42,345 bases of DNA from an uncultured Thermoplasmatales archaeon. GTDB taxonomy: Archaea > Thermoplasmatota > E2 > UBA202 > DSCA01. Within the stretch, counting starts at the first letter, position 1; every line of letters begins with the position of its first letter. Location of the stretch: positions 1-42,345 of the forward strand of contig CAZESS010000020.1 of the NCBI GenBank assembly GCA_964514975.1, in the 5' to 3' direction. The position numbers and the translations under genes are program-made. This document shows, in pieces, positions 3,301 to 27,160 of the stretch. The notes beneath the pieces are model-generated. The model searched no databases and was not told the DNA's origin. It was given only the letters and a program-made list of their open reading frames with translations.

Positions 3301-3837
3301 GGCAATAACAAGTACAACGCCAGCGTCGACGAGCCAATGTCGAACGTCGACATATCTGTCGGCGGAAAGAGCACCTCCACCAATGCACGCGGCGAATACA
3401 GCATAACCTCGCTGCTGCCCGACACCTACACGATGAGCGTGACCAGGAACGGCTACGAGGTCACCTCCTCGAAACAGGTCGGCATCAAGCCCAACCAGAC
3501 GATAACCAAGAACCTGTCGCTGGCACCGGCAAAGGTAACGGTGAGCGGCGCAGCCTGGCTGGACCTGAACCACAACGGCAGACGCGACGCCAACGAAACC
3601 GTGCCCAACGTCCCCATCGGTTTCACAGTGCTCAGCGCCCCCGACCAGAACGCCGAAAACACGACGGCTGAGGCCAACGAAACCGGATACTACACAAAGA
3701 ACCTCTCGCCGGGTACCTACCGGGTATCCGTCAACGCCACCTCAAACGGCACCCGCTACGTGTACAGCCACACCATCACCATCGACATCGGCGACGCACC
3801 GCGCACCCTGAACATCGAGATCGCCCGGGCGGACTAG
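385..3837 (+). CDS. aglB: Oligosaccharyltransferase AglB/STT3 with C-terminal beta-sandwich (carboxypeptidase-regulatory/SdrD-B-like) extensions
   Basis: Multi-TM N-terminal half with DPYY, DHD and TIAE motifs, then the WWDYG motif and ADNFQ. Start placed at ATG 385 (MASGIN). Confidence 0.93.
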   Translation: MASGINLKKWALPLVIVAFVLVLFFNTYFNATSGIAVNEDATSLTEKFYLSGPDPYYNARLIEETLESGEYAYLGGEYGTTDPLLNYPLGRSGGRPPLFNMITMGVGGLLSPVMGEVDALGFAMQFLPALYGALLVFPVYVIGSRLFDWKAGLVGAFMVALIPIHLGSGHGSAFSLYDHDSLVLLLTTTTMMFLTLSLTERHDRKSMLYAFMGGVSIAAMSMTWVSGQYIYALVAVYAVAQMFVDIVSSRINLRVPRTVNIALLGGYLVALPFFIYRQGLAMTTELAVILGVVVFSGIYLWLRRQNIPWVVSIPSIFGLGGIALVFLYLIRNTTIGVLQPFTRISDIIYGAGIYGKKVSATIAEASTFDFSRNVMSFGPVLFWLAWAGFVLLAYRVWKDRSRRGYFLLIMWLLVETWLLSTAGRFLNNLVPIMAILGGWVLWMTIDKLNFKDMVSTIRGVGGGWYGFKKGVKIRHVAGVVFIVFFVFVPNGWMAFDASLPSTMKQDFDSDKLGAFGLGLHTEEYWTDAFGWLERQEQNMSNVDKPAVISWWDYGFYEVAIAKHPTVADNFQDGIPPASNFQTAESEQAAVSIWLVRLAEGDMQEHDGELSAELKDVFDEHLGDHSDDLVTIIETPKEYVNTTYDDIISKQYGGEKYRVRAENARYHDATSLLTGNLTDEELTWLYHDVQDVTGNSIRYYAVEGYDVNIFNVFTFLADKGTFGYETSEDRYFNLWYTNESGLRFTPEEVRNMTQQERQQIGQLTPHQERKQPFYNSMVYRSYLGSSVPKQIFENQTENQQYLQYLYMLMRPTQGFKHFSVEYVSPMDDQQSLYFARGQLCRGCPAVVIAKYYEGARINGTLVSEGEPVDGATVTVQQTVTMFNQSRSISHDSTVTDASGHFSVIAPAGNISLSISQGSGQNQVQIKTITFNGTGERAPITEDEAMRRGDWRRDLGVISIQKGSVEGMAYWDKDGNNKYNASVDEPMSNVDISVGGKSTSTNARGEYSITSLLPDTYTMSVTRNGYEVTSSKQVGIKPNQTITKNLSLAPAKVTVSGAAWLDLNHNGRRDANETVPNVPIGFTVLSAPDQNAENTTAEANETGYYTKNLSPGTYRVSVNATSNGTRYVYSHTITIDIGDAPRTLNIEIARAD

Positions 3838-5287: not shown

Positions 5288-5938
5288 CTACGATTCCTGC
5301 TCCTGCAGCTCCGCATAATAGGGACAGCGCTGCCGGAGCAGGCAGCGCTCGCATTCCGGGTTCCGGGCATGACATATCTGGCGGCCGTGCGCGATGAGCA
5401 TGTTTGAGACCTCATACCATCGCTTCCAGGGATAGCGCTCCATCAGATCCCGCTCGATTTTTTCCCGCTTTTCATGCTCGGTGAGGCCAAGGCGCTGCGC
5501 CAGCCGCATGACATGGGTGTCCACGACGACGCCCTCGTGGACGTCGTACGCCTCGCTCATGACGACGTTGGCGGTCTTCCGGCTCACCCCGTGCAGCTCC
5601 ACCATGTCCTCCATCCGGTTGGGCACCTCGCCGTCGTGCTCCTCCACGATACGCCGCGCGCTTTTTTTGATGTATTTTGCCTTGTTCCGGTAAAAGTTGA
5701 CGCTGTTGATTGCTTCCTGCAGCTCCTCCAACTCGGCGCTGGCATATGCCTCCACACTCGGATATTTTTCGAACAGCTTTGGCGTTACCTTGTTGACCTG
5801 CTCGTCGGTGGTCTGCGCCGAGAGAATCGTCGCGACGAGCAGCTCCATCGGCGTCTCATAGTTCAGCGCCGTCCCCGTCACATCGGGGTATTCCTCCCTA
5901 AGCACGTCGATGACGTCTCTTTCCTCGCTTTCAGCCAT
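5288..5938 (-). CDS. nth: Endonuclease III (HhH-GPD glycosylase with 4Fe-4S cluster)
   Basis: LLVATILSAQTTD, HhH LHGVSRKTANVV, VDTHV, and C-x6-C-x2-C-x5-C. Start is 5938 or 5947. Confidence 0.93.
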   Translation of the reverse strand: MAESEERDVIDVLREEYPDVTGTALNYETPMELLVATILSAQTTDEQVNKVTPKLFEKYPSVEAYASAELEELQEAINSVNFYRNKAKYIKKSARRIVEEHDGEVPNRMEDMVELHGVSRKTANVVMSEAYDVHEGVVVDTHVMRLAQRLGLTEHEKREKIERDLMERYPWKRWYEVSNMLIAHGRQICHARNPECERCLLRQRCPYYAELQEQES

Positions 5939-5970
5939 AGTAGGCATGTAACACCGGGGTGTTTTTCTCT

Positions 5971-5986
5971 TTTTTGCCACCCGAAA
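5971..5986 (+). repeat. Left copy of 16-bp direct repeat TTTTTGCCACCCGAAA
   Basis: Identical to 8071-8086; marks the switch to AT-rich sequence. Confidence 0.9.
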
Positions 5987-6142
5987 TGACATGTTGGCAC
6001 TTTGTTAATCTAGAGAATTTAAGCTGTTAAAAGAATGTGGGATATATAGTTTGATTTGAAATTGGTTTATAAGGATTTTTTGAATAGATGAGAAAATACG
6101 AAATGGCACCTATCAGTGTCCATCAACTATGAAGGTTTACCC

Positions 6143-6907
6143 TCACTTTTTTTCAAATTCCTCCCATTTTTGTTCTGATACCTCAGATAATACATCGTAT
6201 AATTCGTCAAAGGTATTATCATCGCCCAGGTAATTCCACATTTCCGCGCCTAGAAGTACTTGTTTTTCAAGGTCCATAATTCTTTTGGTGAAGCCCCAAT
6301 TATATTCTTTTCTTGTTACATAGGGATTATAGTGGAGGGCGTAGAATGCTTGGTTTGCATTGCTAATGGACAAATATTGCAACATTTTTGCCTTAGTTGC
6401 CTCGGTTTGATCTAAATTTGGTTTGGGCGATTTTATTTCATAATATAGTGGACCATTTTCATGGTCTCCTACATAAAAATCTAATATTATCAGTGTGTCA
6501 TCCACTTCTCCTGTCTTCGCTTTTTTGATTTCAGCCATTTCTTTATCGTGGTTAGGTATTCTTTCTTTATTGCCTACTTTACCTCTCAACTCTCGGCATA
6601 TCCTATGTATTTTTCTCTCTGCTCCTTTATCTAATTTACAAGTGTAGGGATACTCAAGTTCCACCTCATTATATGTATCTCCAGCGATAATTTTTGCGAG
6701 TTTTGGTACGAATGATTGTCCGATGCTTGTTACTACGGACCTTTCTTTCAATGCCGCTATCGCGGCTTCCGGCGTAAAAAAGATGCTGTGCCAAGGATAT
6801 CCTTTTTTGATGGTTTCATAATCAACATCTAAATTGAACAGGGTATTTTCAAAAAAAGATTCCGTTAAACTTACTATCTCGTTAATCGTGGCATTGCTGA
6901 AGCTCAT
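6143..6907 (-). CDS. Type II restriction endonuclease, TdeIII/MjaII family (PD-(D/E)xK fold)
   Basis: PWH, RSVVTSIG, D...EIKSPKPNLDQ, YNPY and GAEMWNYLG..TF..L motifs; adjacent to an MTase. Confidence 0.8.
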   Translation of the reverse strand: MSFSNATINEIVSLTESFFENTLFNLDVDYETIKKGYPWHSIFFTPEAAIAALKERSVVTSIGQSFVPKLAKIIAGDTYNEVELEYPYTCKLDKGAERKIHRICRELRGKVGNKERIPNHDKEMAEIKKAKTGEVDDTLIILDFYVGDHENGPLYYEIKSPKPNLDQTEATKAKMLQYLSISNANQAFYALHYNPYVTRKEYNWGFTKRIMDLEKQVLLGAEMWNYLGDDNTFDELYDVLSEVSEQKWEEFEKK

Positions 6908-6969
6908 AGAAGAAAATGACGGGCAAACTTTTATAAATTAGGTGTCATTTAGGGTAATAAGGTGTCACT
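6908..6969. promoter_or_regulatory. Divergent promoter/operator: palindromic TATA box with inverted and direct repeats
   Basis: TTTATAAA at 6930-6937; inverted pair AAATGAC (6914-6920) / GTCATTT (6944-6950); direct pair AGGTGTCA at 6940-6947 and 6960-6967. Confidence 0.6.
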
Positions 6970-7140
6970 ATGGGTATATTGTATTCGATTCCGGTAACTG
7001 TGGTTAGTAACAATGGCGCCATGAAGTGTACCATCCCAAAGAGCATTGCTGAAAAAATGAAGTTAAAAAAAGGAGACGGGATTATTTGGACTTTGTTCGA
7101 TGACGGAAAGGTTGAAGTATCAAAAGAAACTATCAAGTGA
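6970..7140 (+). CDS. AbrB/MazE/SpoVT-family DNA-binding protein, 56 aa (not in ORF track)
   Basis: Manual translation: MGILYSIPVTVVSNNGAMKCTIPKSIAEKMKLKKGDGIIWTLFDDGKVEVSKETIK. It has the TIPKxI...L..GD.I.W...G.V swapped-hairpin signature, and its TGA overlaps the MTase GTG (GTGA). Confidence 0.82.
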   Translation: MGILYSIPVTVVSNNGAMKCTIPKSIAEKMKLKKGDGIIWTLFDDGKVEVSKETIK

Positions 7141-7952
7141 TACCCATGGAGACCTCAATGGAATTTTACATAGGTGACTGTCTTGAAAAATTTGCTCGGA
7201 TTGAGCCTGAAACTGTTGATATGGTGTTTGCCGACCCACCATATAACGTCGGTAAAGAGTATTATGGTGATGATGTCGATGACAACCGATCGGATTATTT
7301 TAAATGGATGGAAAAATGGATGACAAAATGTTATGAGGTTTTACGGCCTGGTGGGGCAGCATATTTTATGAATGCACCAAAAAAATTTGGCCGGCAAGAA
7401 GCTGTTATAAAATCCGTTGGTTTTGATATCTCAAGTTATATTGTTTGGATGCGGCGGAATCCTGCACCGGCGAAGAATACTTTTCCAAACATTCATTCTG
7501 ACATTCATTATTGTATAAAGCCCGGCGGAAAGCGGTATTTTGATGCCTCGGAATTGATACCGTATGAAATCCGGAGAGAAGATGGAATAGTTGGAAAAGA
7601 TCATAGGCCCTATGACGTCTGGCTTGATATTCCTAAACTTGTCCCCGGATTTATGGCTCAAGATGAAGTGGTTATGAAGCCTGGAAAGAAAAAGGCGATG
7701 TTGCTTCCTAATCAATTGCCGGAAAAGTTGGTGTGGCGATGTGTTAGAGCGAGTACGAAACCGGGAGATTTAGTAGTTGACCCTTTTCTCGGTGTTGGTA
7801 CGACTATGAGGGTGTGTGGTAAGCATAACCGGAATTTCATTGGTTTTGAAATTAATGAGGAATACAAGCCGTTTTTAGATAAACAAAAGAAAATATTAAA
7901 CTCGTTGCCAGATAAAGAAACAGAAAATGAATTGAAACAAACCACTCTTTAA
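7137..7952 (+). CDS. Site-specific DNA amino-methyltransferase (m6A or m4C), beta class
   Basis: GDCLE, catalytic FADPPYN near the N-terminus, PEKLV, and SAM-binding DPFLGVGTT...GFEIN near the C-terminus. Confidence 0.92.
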   Translation: MIPMETSMEFYIGDCLEKFARIEPETVDMVFADPPYNVGKEYYGDDVDDNRSDYFKWMEKWMTKCYEVLRPGGAAYFMNAPKKFGRQEAVIKSVGFDISSYIVWMRRNPAPAKNTFPNIHSDIHYCIKPGGKRYFDASELIPYEIRREDGIVGKDHRPYDVWLDIPKLVPGFMAQDEVVMKPGKKKAMLLPNQLPEKLVWRCVRASTKPGDLVVDPFLGVGTTMRVCGKHNRNFIGFEINEEYKPFLDKQKKILNSLPDKETENELKQTTL

Positions 7953-8070
7953 TCAAGAACACAGTATGTGGTTTCGCGGCTGTCGAACCGAATATGGGGA
8001 GAATGAAGTCTCAGTATCATATCTTTTACGGTTAGTGGTGTTAGCGGCATCAAAAGCATGGATTGTACAA

Positions 8071-8086
8071 TTTTTGCCACCCGAAA
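8071..8086 (+). repeat. Right copy of 16-bp direct repeat TTTTTGCCACCCGAAA
   Basis: Identical to 5971-5986; GC-rich sequence resumes immediately after it. Confidence 0.9.
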
Positions 8087-8179
8087 ACGCTATCTAGCGC
8101 CGTCCCGATAGATAGGTATGGAGCGCTGCCCGCGCTGCGGCCGTCATCATGATGGGCGGTATCCCTGTCCCTGGTGTGG

Positions 8180-8725
8180 CTACGACGAGCGTGTCCGTGT
8201 CATCTGGTAGCCCTGGGTTTGGCGGAGTGCCATGTCTATTAGTTTTCCCTCTGCCAGCGATGCAGCGACCATGACGGCCATGAGCACTCCGACATAGGTG
8301 ACGCCGAAATAATATATCATGATCGGCAGCAGTGGAATCTTGACCGCCCGGTTGTAGAGAAACGTGGCGCTCAGGCCGGGCCGCATGCCCTTTTCCTGGA
8401 GGTCCCGGAGCAGCGGATACCATAGGTAGATGGGCCCATGGCTGATGATGCCGGCCAGCGAGGCGAGCAGCCATCCTTTCGCTCCTGATTTGGCGCCGAG
8501 ATGTCTGGCGACCTGCTGTGGCCGGAGCAGATAGTTGACCAGGACCATCATCGCTATCACGAGGGCGAGCACGGGCAGGATGCCGTACAGGATGCTGCCG
8601 CTCGTTTGGAGCGCCTGCCATGTCGCCGTGCTGTCCAGCGCGTAGGAGACAATGTACATCCCGATGACGATGCCCAGGAAGACGAGGCCGGAGCGCAGCA
8701 TTGCCGGCCCGCGTTTTCCTTTCAT
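8180..8725 (-). CDS. Permease (DUF318/ArsP-like), second half of a split pair
   Basis: Hydrophobic helices; LG..SG..GWLLA..AGIISHGPIYLWYPLL..L..KG motif. ATGA overlap with the upstream half. Confidence 0.75.
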   Translation of the reverse strand: MKGKRGPAMLRSGLVFLGIVIGMYIVSYALDSTATWQALQTSGSILYGILPVLALVIAMMVLVNYLLRPQQVARHLGAKSGAKGWLLASLAGIISHGPIYLWYPLLRDLQEKGMRPGLSATFLYNRAVKIPLLPIMIYYFGVTYVGVLMAVMVAASLAEGKLIDMALRQTQGYQMTRTRSS

Positions 8726-9156
8726 GCGACCACCCCGGCGATGGCCACGGTTATGGCGGATACGAGCAGCGCCAGCAGGAAGCTCAGGATGGTGCGGAGC
8801 AGGGCGAACCGCCGGCCCAGCGTGCCTATCTCTGCCGGGAGCTGCACGACGCCGACGGTGACCCAGGCGACGATGAACGCGGTCACCGCGAACAGGCTTA
8901 CCCCGCTGTCCAGCAGTTCGCCGCCGATGACGTAGCTGGTGATGGGGTTGCCAGCCGAGATGCTGCCGATTGCCGCGCCCATCGGAACGTCACGCAAGAC
9001 ATCGCCGGTGAACACCGCGGCGACCATGTCTCCCGTTACGTATGTCTTGAACAGGCCGAGCAGGAGCACCACGCCCAGCAGGACGGGCAGTGTCATGGCG
9101 AACCCCCGCAGTGCCTTTATCGTTGCTGCGTGGAGACGCTCCATCCGGCTATCCAT
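8722..9156 (-). CDS. Permease (DUF318/ArsP-like), first half of a split pair
   Basis: GAAIGSISAGNPITSYVIGGELL..GVSLFAVTAFIVAWVTVGVVQLPAE...LG.RFA..R. Start set at ATG 9156, which overlaps the radical SAM stop. Confidence 0.78.
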   Translation of the reverse strand: MDSRMERLHAATIKALRGFAMTLPVLLGVVLLLGLFKTYVTGDMVAAVFTGDVLRDVPMGAAIGSISAGNPITSYVIGGELLDSGVSLFAVTAFIVAWVTVGVVQLPAEIGTLGRRFALLRTILSFLLALLVSAITVAIAGVVA

Positions 9157-27086: not shown

Positions 27087-27160
27087 GCCGCGGTAGCTCA
27101 GTTTGGGAGAGCGCCAGACTGAAGATCTGGGTGTCGAGGGTTCAAGTCCCTCCCGCGGCA
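27087..27160 (+). tRNA. tRNA-Phe (GAA), intronless, CCA not encoded
   Basis: Acceptor stem GCCGCGG/CCGCGGC plus discriminator A; D arm GCTC..GAGC; anticodon arm CCAGA-CTGAAGA-TCTGG (GAA at 27121-27123); T arm GAGGG-TTCAAGT-CCCTC. Confidence 0.97.

Follow-up and report, generated by a model that had tools for sequence, protein, structure and literature searches.

A restriction-modification operon between 16-bp direct repeats at a reusable insertion site upstream of nth in a Thermoplasmatales archaeon

Cargo genes that lack recombination genes of their own are known from several settings. In streptococci, cis-mobilisable elements (CIMEs) comprise cargo that is flanked by attachment (att) sites and is devoid of recombination genes, and accretion at these att sites gives elements with one arm in common and the other arm differing, a pattern that tandem integration followed by deletion is expected to leave. 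Integron cassettes carry attC sites with an inverse core and a GTTRRRY core, and integrase-less attC clusters as well as archaeal integrons exist. The present analysis concerns a restriction-modification (R-M) cassette delimited by an exact 16-bp direct repeat next to the endonuclease III gene nth of an uncultured Thermoplasmatales archaeon (assembly GCA_964514975.1, contig CAZESS010000020.1, positions 1 to 42,345; this whole stretch of 42,345 nucleotides is called the window). For R-M genes, Furuta, Abe and Kobayashi (2010) distinguished, in the parts of their survey drawn on here, insertion by site-specific recombination, insertion with long target duplication (>30 bp, after Nobusato et al. 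2000) and chance (PMC2853133), and according to the same parts no archaeal R-M system survived the screen with empty-site comparison (PMC2853133). Minimal mobile elements of Neisseria (Saunders and Snyder 2002; Snyder 2007) are presented in the cited passages as variable content between conserved flanking genes (PMC3787668), and the PluTI R-M element of Photorhabdus as a putative mobile element with 16-bp terminal direct repeats (PMC2875022).

Comparison of the window with its relatives indicates that the insertion of the R-M operon is real, recent and precise and that its site is specific to the genus and can be reused, and the operon (5987-8070) is horizontally acquired and self-contained. 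Three filled alleles of this site were found, namely those of the window, of the related genome G001 and of contig C249 of the related genome G002 (G002:C249), each with a different cargo. The explanation that we favour, with a probability of about one half, is that a non-autonomous cassette was integrated by site-specific recombination in trans and was later spread by recombination in the flanks.

In its organization, the cassette would work most like a CIME, as attL/attR-like repeats surround cargo free of recombination genes, one copy of the repeat is present at the empty site, the site is reused with the core on the element side, and the arms of the filled alleles form a mosaic. It differs from CIMEs in having neither a known integrase-bearing partner nor an assigned cognate recombinase, in residing in an archaeon and in being placed at the spacer between divergent promoters, not at a tRNA or gene end. 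Integron cassettes resemble it in their recombinase-free, variable cargo at a fixed site; the differences are that the present locus has a single cassette and no array, no intI and no integrase in the window, that its repeat is host spacer and that no attC-type GTTRRRY core was seen, by eye, at the cassette junctions (5987-6142 and 7953-8070). The R-M units of Furuta and colleagues, in the text cited, share with it the complete R and M genes, the small insert without a mobility gene, direct repeats equivalent to one copy in an empty relative and allelic substitution. However, their long-duplication class lies above 30 bp as compared to 16 bp here, with the reservation that the supplements of that article may hold shorter repeats (PMC2853133), and their site-specific class has an integrase nearby or is a prophage, neither of which accompanies the cassette (PMC2853133). 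The insert is smaller than 20 kb and contains no other mobile element, but because its repeat falls short of 30 bp it is not classed as a long target duplication. The two copies of the repeat are identical in the window, and in G001 the copies at the corresponding place differ at 6 of 16 positions with only the left one native. Minimal mobile elements, as described in the cited passages, likewise have different content between the same genes and exchange of flanks, for which a patch in G002 is the counterpart here, and gene content does vary between fixed flanking genes in close relatives of the window. They lack a defined junction or repeat and depend on flank recombination only, whereas the present slot has one junction base in all filled alleles, a 10-nt core and, in the window, the 16-bp repeat. 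The repeats of PluTI, on the cited account, are part of insertion sequences (PMC2875022), whereas the present repeat is single-copy host spacer, unlike any insertion sequence and unique in the genome.

Empty and filled states of the slot

The 16-mer TTTTTGCCACCCGAAA is located at 5971-5986 and 8071-8086, as an earlier note made from the letters of the window alone had proposed, with 2100 bp from start to start and 2,084 bp between the copies; identity extends over exactly 16 bp, and the bases flanking either copy differ. When up to two mismatches were allowed, these copies were the sole matches within the window, and two or more copies were present in none of 100 dinucleotide-preserving shuffles of it. 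The window represents the whole of contig C20 of a metagenome-assembled genome (G000; 1,955,736 bases in 66 contigs, 98.9% complete, contamination given as 2.9%), in which no other match was found at up to one mismatch; at three mismatches, the core of the 16-mer was matched as frequently as a reversed-pattern control, which amounts to noise, and hence the repeat is not a dispersed motif. The copies are situated exactly where the GC content drops from about 0.6 (0.58-0.62 on the left and 0.59-0.66 on the right) to about 0.37 inside (0.34-0.44), in agreement with the switch points between GC-rich and AT-rich DNA noticed earlier. In a genome survey of 33 AT-rich islands (0.9-15 kb, contig ends excluded and the uniformly low-GC contig C6 omitted), an exact border repeat of at least 13 nt was found only in the R-M island. 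Other islands that scored positive were discarded as six self-overlap artefacts (<1 kb) and one island with internal 55-nt repeats, and a 14-mer repeat on contig C10 was discarded since it is positioned inside its island, away from the borders.

That the repeat is a matter of chance, or the cassette an artefact of assembly, has already been refuted. The metagenome-assembled nature of the genome is the sole point in favour of such an explanation, and against it stand the shuffles just described, the empty sites of relatives that align exactly to one copy of the 16-mer, and independent contigs. One independent contig, from a public run that is possibly that of the source sample, spans 5300-8800 unbroken, and the right junction is bridged by a 272-nt contig of a different study (7859-8130; 11 differences and 1 gap). 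The latter study is of a salt-lake metagenome, in which a 263-nt contig also matches 6978-7240 identically, both contigs being at low depth, and a marine run contains relatives of the flanks (85-95% identical) together with a piece of the endonuclease gene (88% identical).

Related junctions were collected by searching a 4.5-kb query against 61 genomes, including the four other genomes of the genus (G001-G004), and by screening metagenomes with a 17-nt degenerate nth pattern, which returned at least 120 stretches of which 80 were compared; two of these 80 contigs (L019 and L084), both empty, were true relatives by blastn. Of the seven related junctions obtained, four are empty, two contain other cargo and one is unreadable. 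The empty sites, on contigs C11 of G002 and C16 of G003 and on L019 and L084, each contain a single variant copy of the 16-mer with the two flanks meeting precisely, and in G002:C11 and G003:C16 the sequences homologous to the two flanks abut with overlaps of 19 nt and 16 nt, respectively. In G001, the slot is occupied by about 1 kb of different AT-rich DNA with two open reading frames (ORFs; 144 and 70 amino acids) that have no match in Pfam, PADLOC or NCBIfam. A second allele of G002, on the 2,184-bp contig C249, has at least 737 bp of a third cargo before the right flank, with a DsrE/DsrF-like gene (PF02635); its left junction is unassembled. The seventh junction, that of G004, coincides with a scaffold gap of 100 N exactly between nth and the zinc-ribbon ORF of the right flank (G004:C28, ~8221-8320; L005, L225), and such a break in assembly is expected if the population carries an insertion or is polymorphic. 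Flank identities group the genomes as ((G000, L019/L084), (G001, G004)), with G003 and G002 outside. Because the nearest relative, L019/L084 with flanks 90-93% identical, is empty, the insertion is younger than the split between G000 and L019/L084; G001 belongs to the other sub-clade, with G004. The earlier note had named as support an empty site with one 16-mer, borne out here in variant form at four of the seven junctions, or different cargo between the same repeats, and two of the seven do have different cargo at this junction. Its description of the slot as one for defence cassettes did not hold, since the other cargoes comprise a DsrE/DsrF-like protein and two ORFs without a match in the three profile collections.

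In the empty sites, nth and the zinc-ribbon ORF are divergent and are separated by a spacer of ~80 bp with the 16-mer at its centre. After insertion, each of the two genes retains one 16-mer at an unchanged distance from its start, so that the retained copies would, judging by their position, spare both flanking promoters. The left copy probably also overlaps an A-rich box upstream of nth, given where it lies. The insertion supplies an in-frame upstream ATG, and as a result nth is listed as 234 amino acids from 5992, inside the cassette; orthologues of nth start at the ATG equivalent to 5947 or 5938, and the extension to 5992 is best read as an artefact of insertion with ATG 5947 as the likely start. 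The position upstream of nth thus agrees with the earlier note, but its picture of an interrupted series of minus-strand genes needs correction, since the plus-strand zinc-ribbon ORF forms the right flank. No tRNA adjoins the site, as had been stated, the sole tRNA in the window being at 27087-27160. In other genera, nth was not found beside the zinc-ribbon and permease genes, and comparison of the slot is hence confined to the genus. Regarding the left edge, a 17-mer, TTTTTCTCTTTTTTGCC (5961-5978), located to the left of and overlapping the repeat, recurs exactly at G000:C8:10525-10541, and parts of it of 13-14 nt recur on several contigs of G000; this could be an A/T box of promoter type that is common in the host.

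Junctions of the filled alleles and the mode of insertion

The right junction of all three filled alleles consists of CCACCCGAAA immediately before the flank, conserved at 10 of 10 positions; at this place the empty sites have GGCCGGAA (L019 and L084), ACCGGAA (G003) and ATCCAAA (G002). In G001, the left copy is the native 16-mer of L019 and L084 with the cargo directly after it, and the right copy departs from the native sequence at 6 of its 16 positions, its last bases being CCACCCGAAA. Between the two G001 copies, 10 of 16 positions match, and directly at the crossover they have nothing but GAA in common. On the inner side of the left junction, 18 of the first 24 bases of the window cassette and of the G001 cargo are identical, in register with the junction, and the anchored score of 11 for this left end exceeds the maximum of 5 in 5947 control windows. 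The right inner arms of the same two alleles show no relationship, as high a score being obtained with 281 of 500 shuffles. The right inner arm of G001 aligns with that of G002:C249 over about 150 nt (68% identity, E 2e-20), and these two alleles also have in common a block of core plus flank that is identical at 38 of 38 nt. Unanchored local alignments of the cassette ends gave nothing significant, and a pattern for the common left end, searched in 39 genomes of the order, matched the window only, a weak result as the pattern missed G001 owing to a 1-nt indel. An apparent match of 16 of 17 bases between the right end of the window cassette and the left arm of G001 was dropped, since shuffled sequences did as well in 7 of 300 cases with one scoring scheme and in 102 of 500 with a second one.

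Homologous exchange also moves filled alleles, as observed for one of them. In an alignment of 1,395 nt, the right flank of G002:C249 differs from that of the empty G002:C11 at only 8 sites, which all lie within positions 4-25 next to the junction, where C249 equals G001. Empty and filled alleles are thus present in a single G002 assembly with flanks identical beyond 25 nt, and they come from one population in which the filled allele arrived with a short piece of foreign flank. Either this allele was imported by recombination in the flanks, or the functional site reaches 25-38 nt rightwards. A comparable donor patch in the flanks of the window itself was considered and rejected, as identity dips near the junction in the control pair G001-L019 as well.

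The course of events that we favour would begin with a circle that brought along a copy of the site; this copy would have CCACCCGAAA as its last bases, with the conserved inner end, starting TGA, next to it. A recombinase encoded elsewhere would join the site of the circle and the chromosomal copy conservatively, leaving one copy on each side, such that nth and the zinc-ribbon gene would keep their upstream sequence and presumably their promoters. Once integrated, the cassette may be held by the addiction effect of the R-M genes, and homologous recombination in the flanks would also carry filled alleles from one lineage to another. Several features of the alignments argue for integration in trans of this kind. 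One junction has been used three times with different content (the R-M genes, the G001 cargo and the G002:C249 cargo), and CCACCCGAAA is constant although the adjoining arms are unalignable (window) or 68% identical (G001 and G002:C249). Also in favour are the exact repeat, unique in the genome and placed at the composition borders, the empty sites, the occurrence of the R-M genes in another genus without these ends, the lack of inverted ends and of Cas1, and the presence in G000 of tyrosine and serine recombinase genes outside this contig. The mosaic, in which the same core is joined to a left arm common to one pair and a right arm common to another, would be expected from repeated recombination at one site, and identity over 3 bases in one allele and 16 in another fits an element-borne site that resembles its target to a varying degree. 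With 3 exact bases in G001 and 16 in the window, duplication by fill-in, which gives equal copies, and a transposase, which gives a fixed length, both fit poorly. The earlier note had left the choice between a target-site duplication and the core of an att-like site used by a trans-acting recombinase; of these the att-like site fits better, the left copy in G001 being native and the right one carrying CCACCCGAAA; no trans-acting recombinase was identified.

Certain observations weigh on the other side. The two copies in the window are identical and cannot by themselves separate target duplication from an attachment site. The filled alleles number only three and are linked by common pieces, so that a single insertion followed by exchange and internal replacement is possible; parsimony may assign the other variant of the site to the ancestor of G000 and L019, so that an extra conversion step would be required; and a simple GAA crossover into the native G002 site would not be expected to give the 25-nt patch. 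Nine tyrosine recombinases (PF00589) and one serine recombinase (PF00239) are encoded in G000, all off this contig, and none could be tied to the site, nothing like the core or the arms being present beside these ten genes. Neither the core nor the cassette ends had a second copy in G000 or G001-G004, and hence no autonomous partner element was found there; in these five genomes the core was matched at up to three mismatches as often as a reversed control, and two matches at two mismatches (G002:C304 and G004:C130) were set aside because both lie in coding sequence. Among the contigs of four public runs, no circle, excision joint or empty site was found, but contigs are liable to drop rare variants and this result does not bear on excision.

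A doubtful but serious alternative is that a linear R-M fragment was inserted once, illegitimately, at a staggered break with a 16-bp duplication, that all filled alleles go back to this or to a small number of similar events, and that everything since has been homologous exchange by recombination in nth and on the side of the permease gene, with later replacement of the inner parts as in a minimal mobile element. The perfect duplication in the window, the lack of a mobility gene inside and the common pieces of the filled alleles (left 24 nt in G000 and G001, right arm in G001 and G002) are in line with it, the 25-nt foreign patch in the G002 flank is a direct sign of flank recombination, and R-M genes are known to insert in such a manner according to the text cited (PMC2853133), just as variable content between fixed genes defines minimal mobile elements in theirs (PMC3787668). 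What this alternative does not accommodate is the G001 allele, native up to the junction on the left and foreign on the right, since flank recombination cannot cross over at the edge of a heterologous insert. It would also need a second precise event, because the right arm of the window is unrelated to those of G001 and G002 and yet meets the core at the same base, and 16 bp is below the 30-bp limit of Furuta et al., set, according to the cited text, to exclude typical repeats of site-specific recombination (PMC2853133).

Integration by general recombination of the host in the manner of Campbell, from a circle carrying at least 16 bases of spacer from a previous host, would explain why the element-side copies resemble the spacer of other lineages, with a pyrimidine run before CCACCCGAAA in G001 and G002:C249 like the native T/C-rich run, and it would make the identity in the window a plain stretch of 16 nt. 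It is improbable, since in G001 the parental sites would agree in no more than GAA at the crossover and in 10 of 16 bases overall, far too little for exchange driven by homology, and since the junction base is constant in all filled alleles where such crossovers should scatter. A non-autonomous transposon or casposon-like element with a 16-bp target-site duplication is largely refuted and has very little likelihood left. Casposons generate target-site duplications of about 14-16 bp, so the length agrees, and the cassette is small and without an enzyme of its own. However, terminal inverted repeats are absent (for the two elements compared, 437 of 500 and 390 of 500 shuffles give as high a score), no Cas1 homologue was found in the 98.9% complete genome G000, no further copy of the ends is present in any of the five genomes that represent the genus, and the length of the duplication varies from 16 nt in G000 to 3 exact bases, or 10 of 16, in G001.

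Beyond integration in trans as such, a more speculative and rather unlikely extension would be that the spacer between nth and the zinc-ribbon gene is a dedicated capture site, at which a trans-acting recombinase encoded in the chromosome reads CCACCCGAAA followed by TGA and swaps cassettes without silencing either gene, served by at least two kinds of vehicle, the R-M cassette of the window and a second family of small cassettes with conserved arms of 53 nt and 64 nt that is also inserted elsewhere, in one case beside a tRNA, and representing an archaeal counterpart, made of different components, of accretion as in integrons or CIMEs.

Cargo, vehicles and neighbouring features

Coordinates of the features of the cassette, its flanks and the related elements are given in Table 1. 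As the earlier note had listed, the cargo consists of an endonuclease gene, an AbrB-like gene and a methyltransferase gene and nothing else, which profile searches confirmed (PF09520, PF04014 and PF01555). No recombinase or transposase was found among the cassette genes with Pfam profiles, nor was a terminal inverted repeat detected on alignment of the left end with the reverse-complemented right end (as high a score in 437 of 500 shuffles), both in accordance with that note. With full-length endonuclease and cognate-type methyltransferase genes in one cassette, supported by profiles, PADLOC and lengths, the genes are predicted to constitute a type II R-M system. Twelve relatives of the endonuclease, all metagenomic, have 254-270 amino acids and 53-80% identity, in keeping with a full-length protein. 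For the methyltransferase, a start at ATG 7146 is likelier than the listed GTG 7137.

The usual controller of helix-turn-helix type is not present, and the small gene has an AbrB/MazE fold instead; against the TIGR01439 AbrB domain, its product scored E 1.6e-5, below the cut-off. Its stop overlaps the start region of the methyltransferase gene, and the gene order is the same in G012, a genome from another genus of the family. The divergent spacer between the endonuclease gene and the regulator-methyltransferase pair measures 62 bp and contains the tandem AGGTGTCA repeats, of which G012 has one perfect copy of the unit at the equivalent place. From this position the repeats are a plausible operator of the AbrB-type regulator, and the 56-amino-acid protein is a probable controller of the R-M operon; control of R-M genes by an AbrB-fold protein, and not by a helix-turn-helix protein as is customary, would be out of the ordinary.

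The sequence GGNCC, the presumed recognition site of TdeIII, is specifically depleted across G000 (observed/expected 0.65 under a maximal-order Markov model), as compared to 1.01 for GCNGC, 1.11 for CGNCG and 1.09 for CCNGG as controls. Such depletion suggests that the lineage has been exposed to enzymes of this kind for longer than the age of this insertion.

The three-gene R-M module of G012 has 72% DNA identity to that of the window over 1,740 nt; it adjoins a malic-enzyme gene and shows no homology to the window cassette in its non-coding ends. Because G012 carries the module without these ends, the R-M genes are regarded as cargo and the ends as the vehicle. The left inner end of the cassette is unique in G000 at up to 3 mismatches and gave no match in G001-G004 by BLAST. 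A profile search with a 13-sequence endonuclease alignment gave, among 80 loci, one close relative (the G012 contig, 65%), the rest being at 24-47%. With the endonuclease alone, none of 22 pattern stretches from genome contigs was confirmed; in viral contigs, none of 26 stretches was confirmed, and the sole match in plasmid and phage collections was a 60-nt methyltransferase motif.

A second family of elements was observed in the genus. Its members are small, AT-rich and free of recombinase genes, with a conserved left core of 53 nt and a right core of 64 nt that contains a 9-bp hairpin followed by GGTTCTTTCC. Their cargoes comprise two unidentified ORFs, a DsrE-like gene and a CPBP/Rce1-like membrane protease gene; the latter, with both arms, is present at different loci in G002 and G004, the G004 copy directly 3' of tRNA-Ile. 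The nth-slot cargoes of G001 and G002 belong to the family and are located inside slot-specific sequence of ~25 nt on the left and 55-85 nt on the right. No member was found in G000 by nhmmer, and the family had no match in Rfam, an Rfam scan giving only tRNA matches. The motif CTCTYGTTAATRAMCAGTTGGC, first suspected to be the att core of this family, occurs in 1-2 copies in each of G001-G004 and neither in G000 nor in a reversed control; the copies are intergenic, with one just after tRNA-Ile and one inside the G001 cargo. Both a promoter-like element and an attachment site are possible readings, the former because the motif recurs in ordinary intergenic regions of G001-G004. As regards other AT-rich DNA in G000, contig C6 (91 kb) has a GC content of ~0.44-0.46 throughout as compared to 0.577 for the genome, and could be explained as a large element of foreign origin, as a plasmid or as contamination at the binning stage.

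The zinc-ribbon ORF had no family match in Pfam or NCBIfam.

Table 1. Positions of the cassette, its repeats and flanking genes in the window, and of related elements in other genomes of the genus
Feature	Position	Strand	Basis or remark
Endonuclease III gene (nth), left flank	5288..5947	-	PF00730, PF00633, PF10576; G001 orthologue starts
Left 16-mer copy, attL-like	5971..5986		Repeat searches; 24-39 nt upstream of likely nth start
Left inner end of cassette	5987..6010		18/24 identical to left inner end of G001 cargo
TdeIII-family type II restriction endonuclease, 254 aa	6143..6907	-	PF09520, E 2.9e-42; PADLOC REase_II
Two tandem 20-nt repeats, each with AGGTGTCA	6936..6975		Divergent spacer of endonuclease and regulator-methyltransferase genes; repeat family D5
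AbrB/SpoVT/MazE-fold DNA-binding protein, 56 aa	6970..7140	+	PF04014, E 2.5e-6, above cut-off
Beta-class N4-cytosine/N6-adenine methyltransferase	7137..7952	+	PF01555, E 1.8e-44; PADLOC MTase_II; DPPY motif in translation
Right inner non-coding end	7953..8070		No significant likeness to right ends of the other two cargoes; no copy elsewhere
Right 16-mer copy, attR-like	8071..8086		Last 10 nt CCACCCGAAA, common to right junctions of three filled alleles
Zinc-ribbon ORF, 30 aa, CxxC...CxxC, right flank	8119..8211	+	Conserved in G001, G002, G003, L019, L084
Permease gene	8180-8725	-	Zinc-ribbon ORF converges on it
Second-family members	L004:2764-2815 and 3571-3634 (G001); L224 (G002:C249); L231:1500-1552 and 2296-2359 (G002:C14)		
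Further second-family members	L228 (G004:C102); L230:97-160 (G004:C103); L251:3277-3329 (G003:C21)		
CTCTYGTTAATRAMCAGTTGGC copies	G001:C38:488-509; G002:C36:964-985; G003:C1:68894-68915; G004:C102:930-951; G001:C58:14981-15002		

Significance of the slot

In kind, the finding is unsurprising, being an archaeal case of a broadly known type of reusable insertion site. How small sets of defence or accessory genes move in archaea without an integrase is poorly understood, and the locus offers an unusually complete set of comparative states, with four empty sites, three cargoes, a population with two alleles, a 10-nt core and one junction pair with unequal copies, by which the choice between an attachment site and a target duplication becomes testable. 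Lying between divergent promoters, the slot upstream of nth also provides a clear natural case of a landing site that tolerates insertions.

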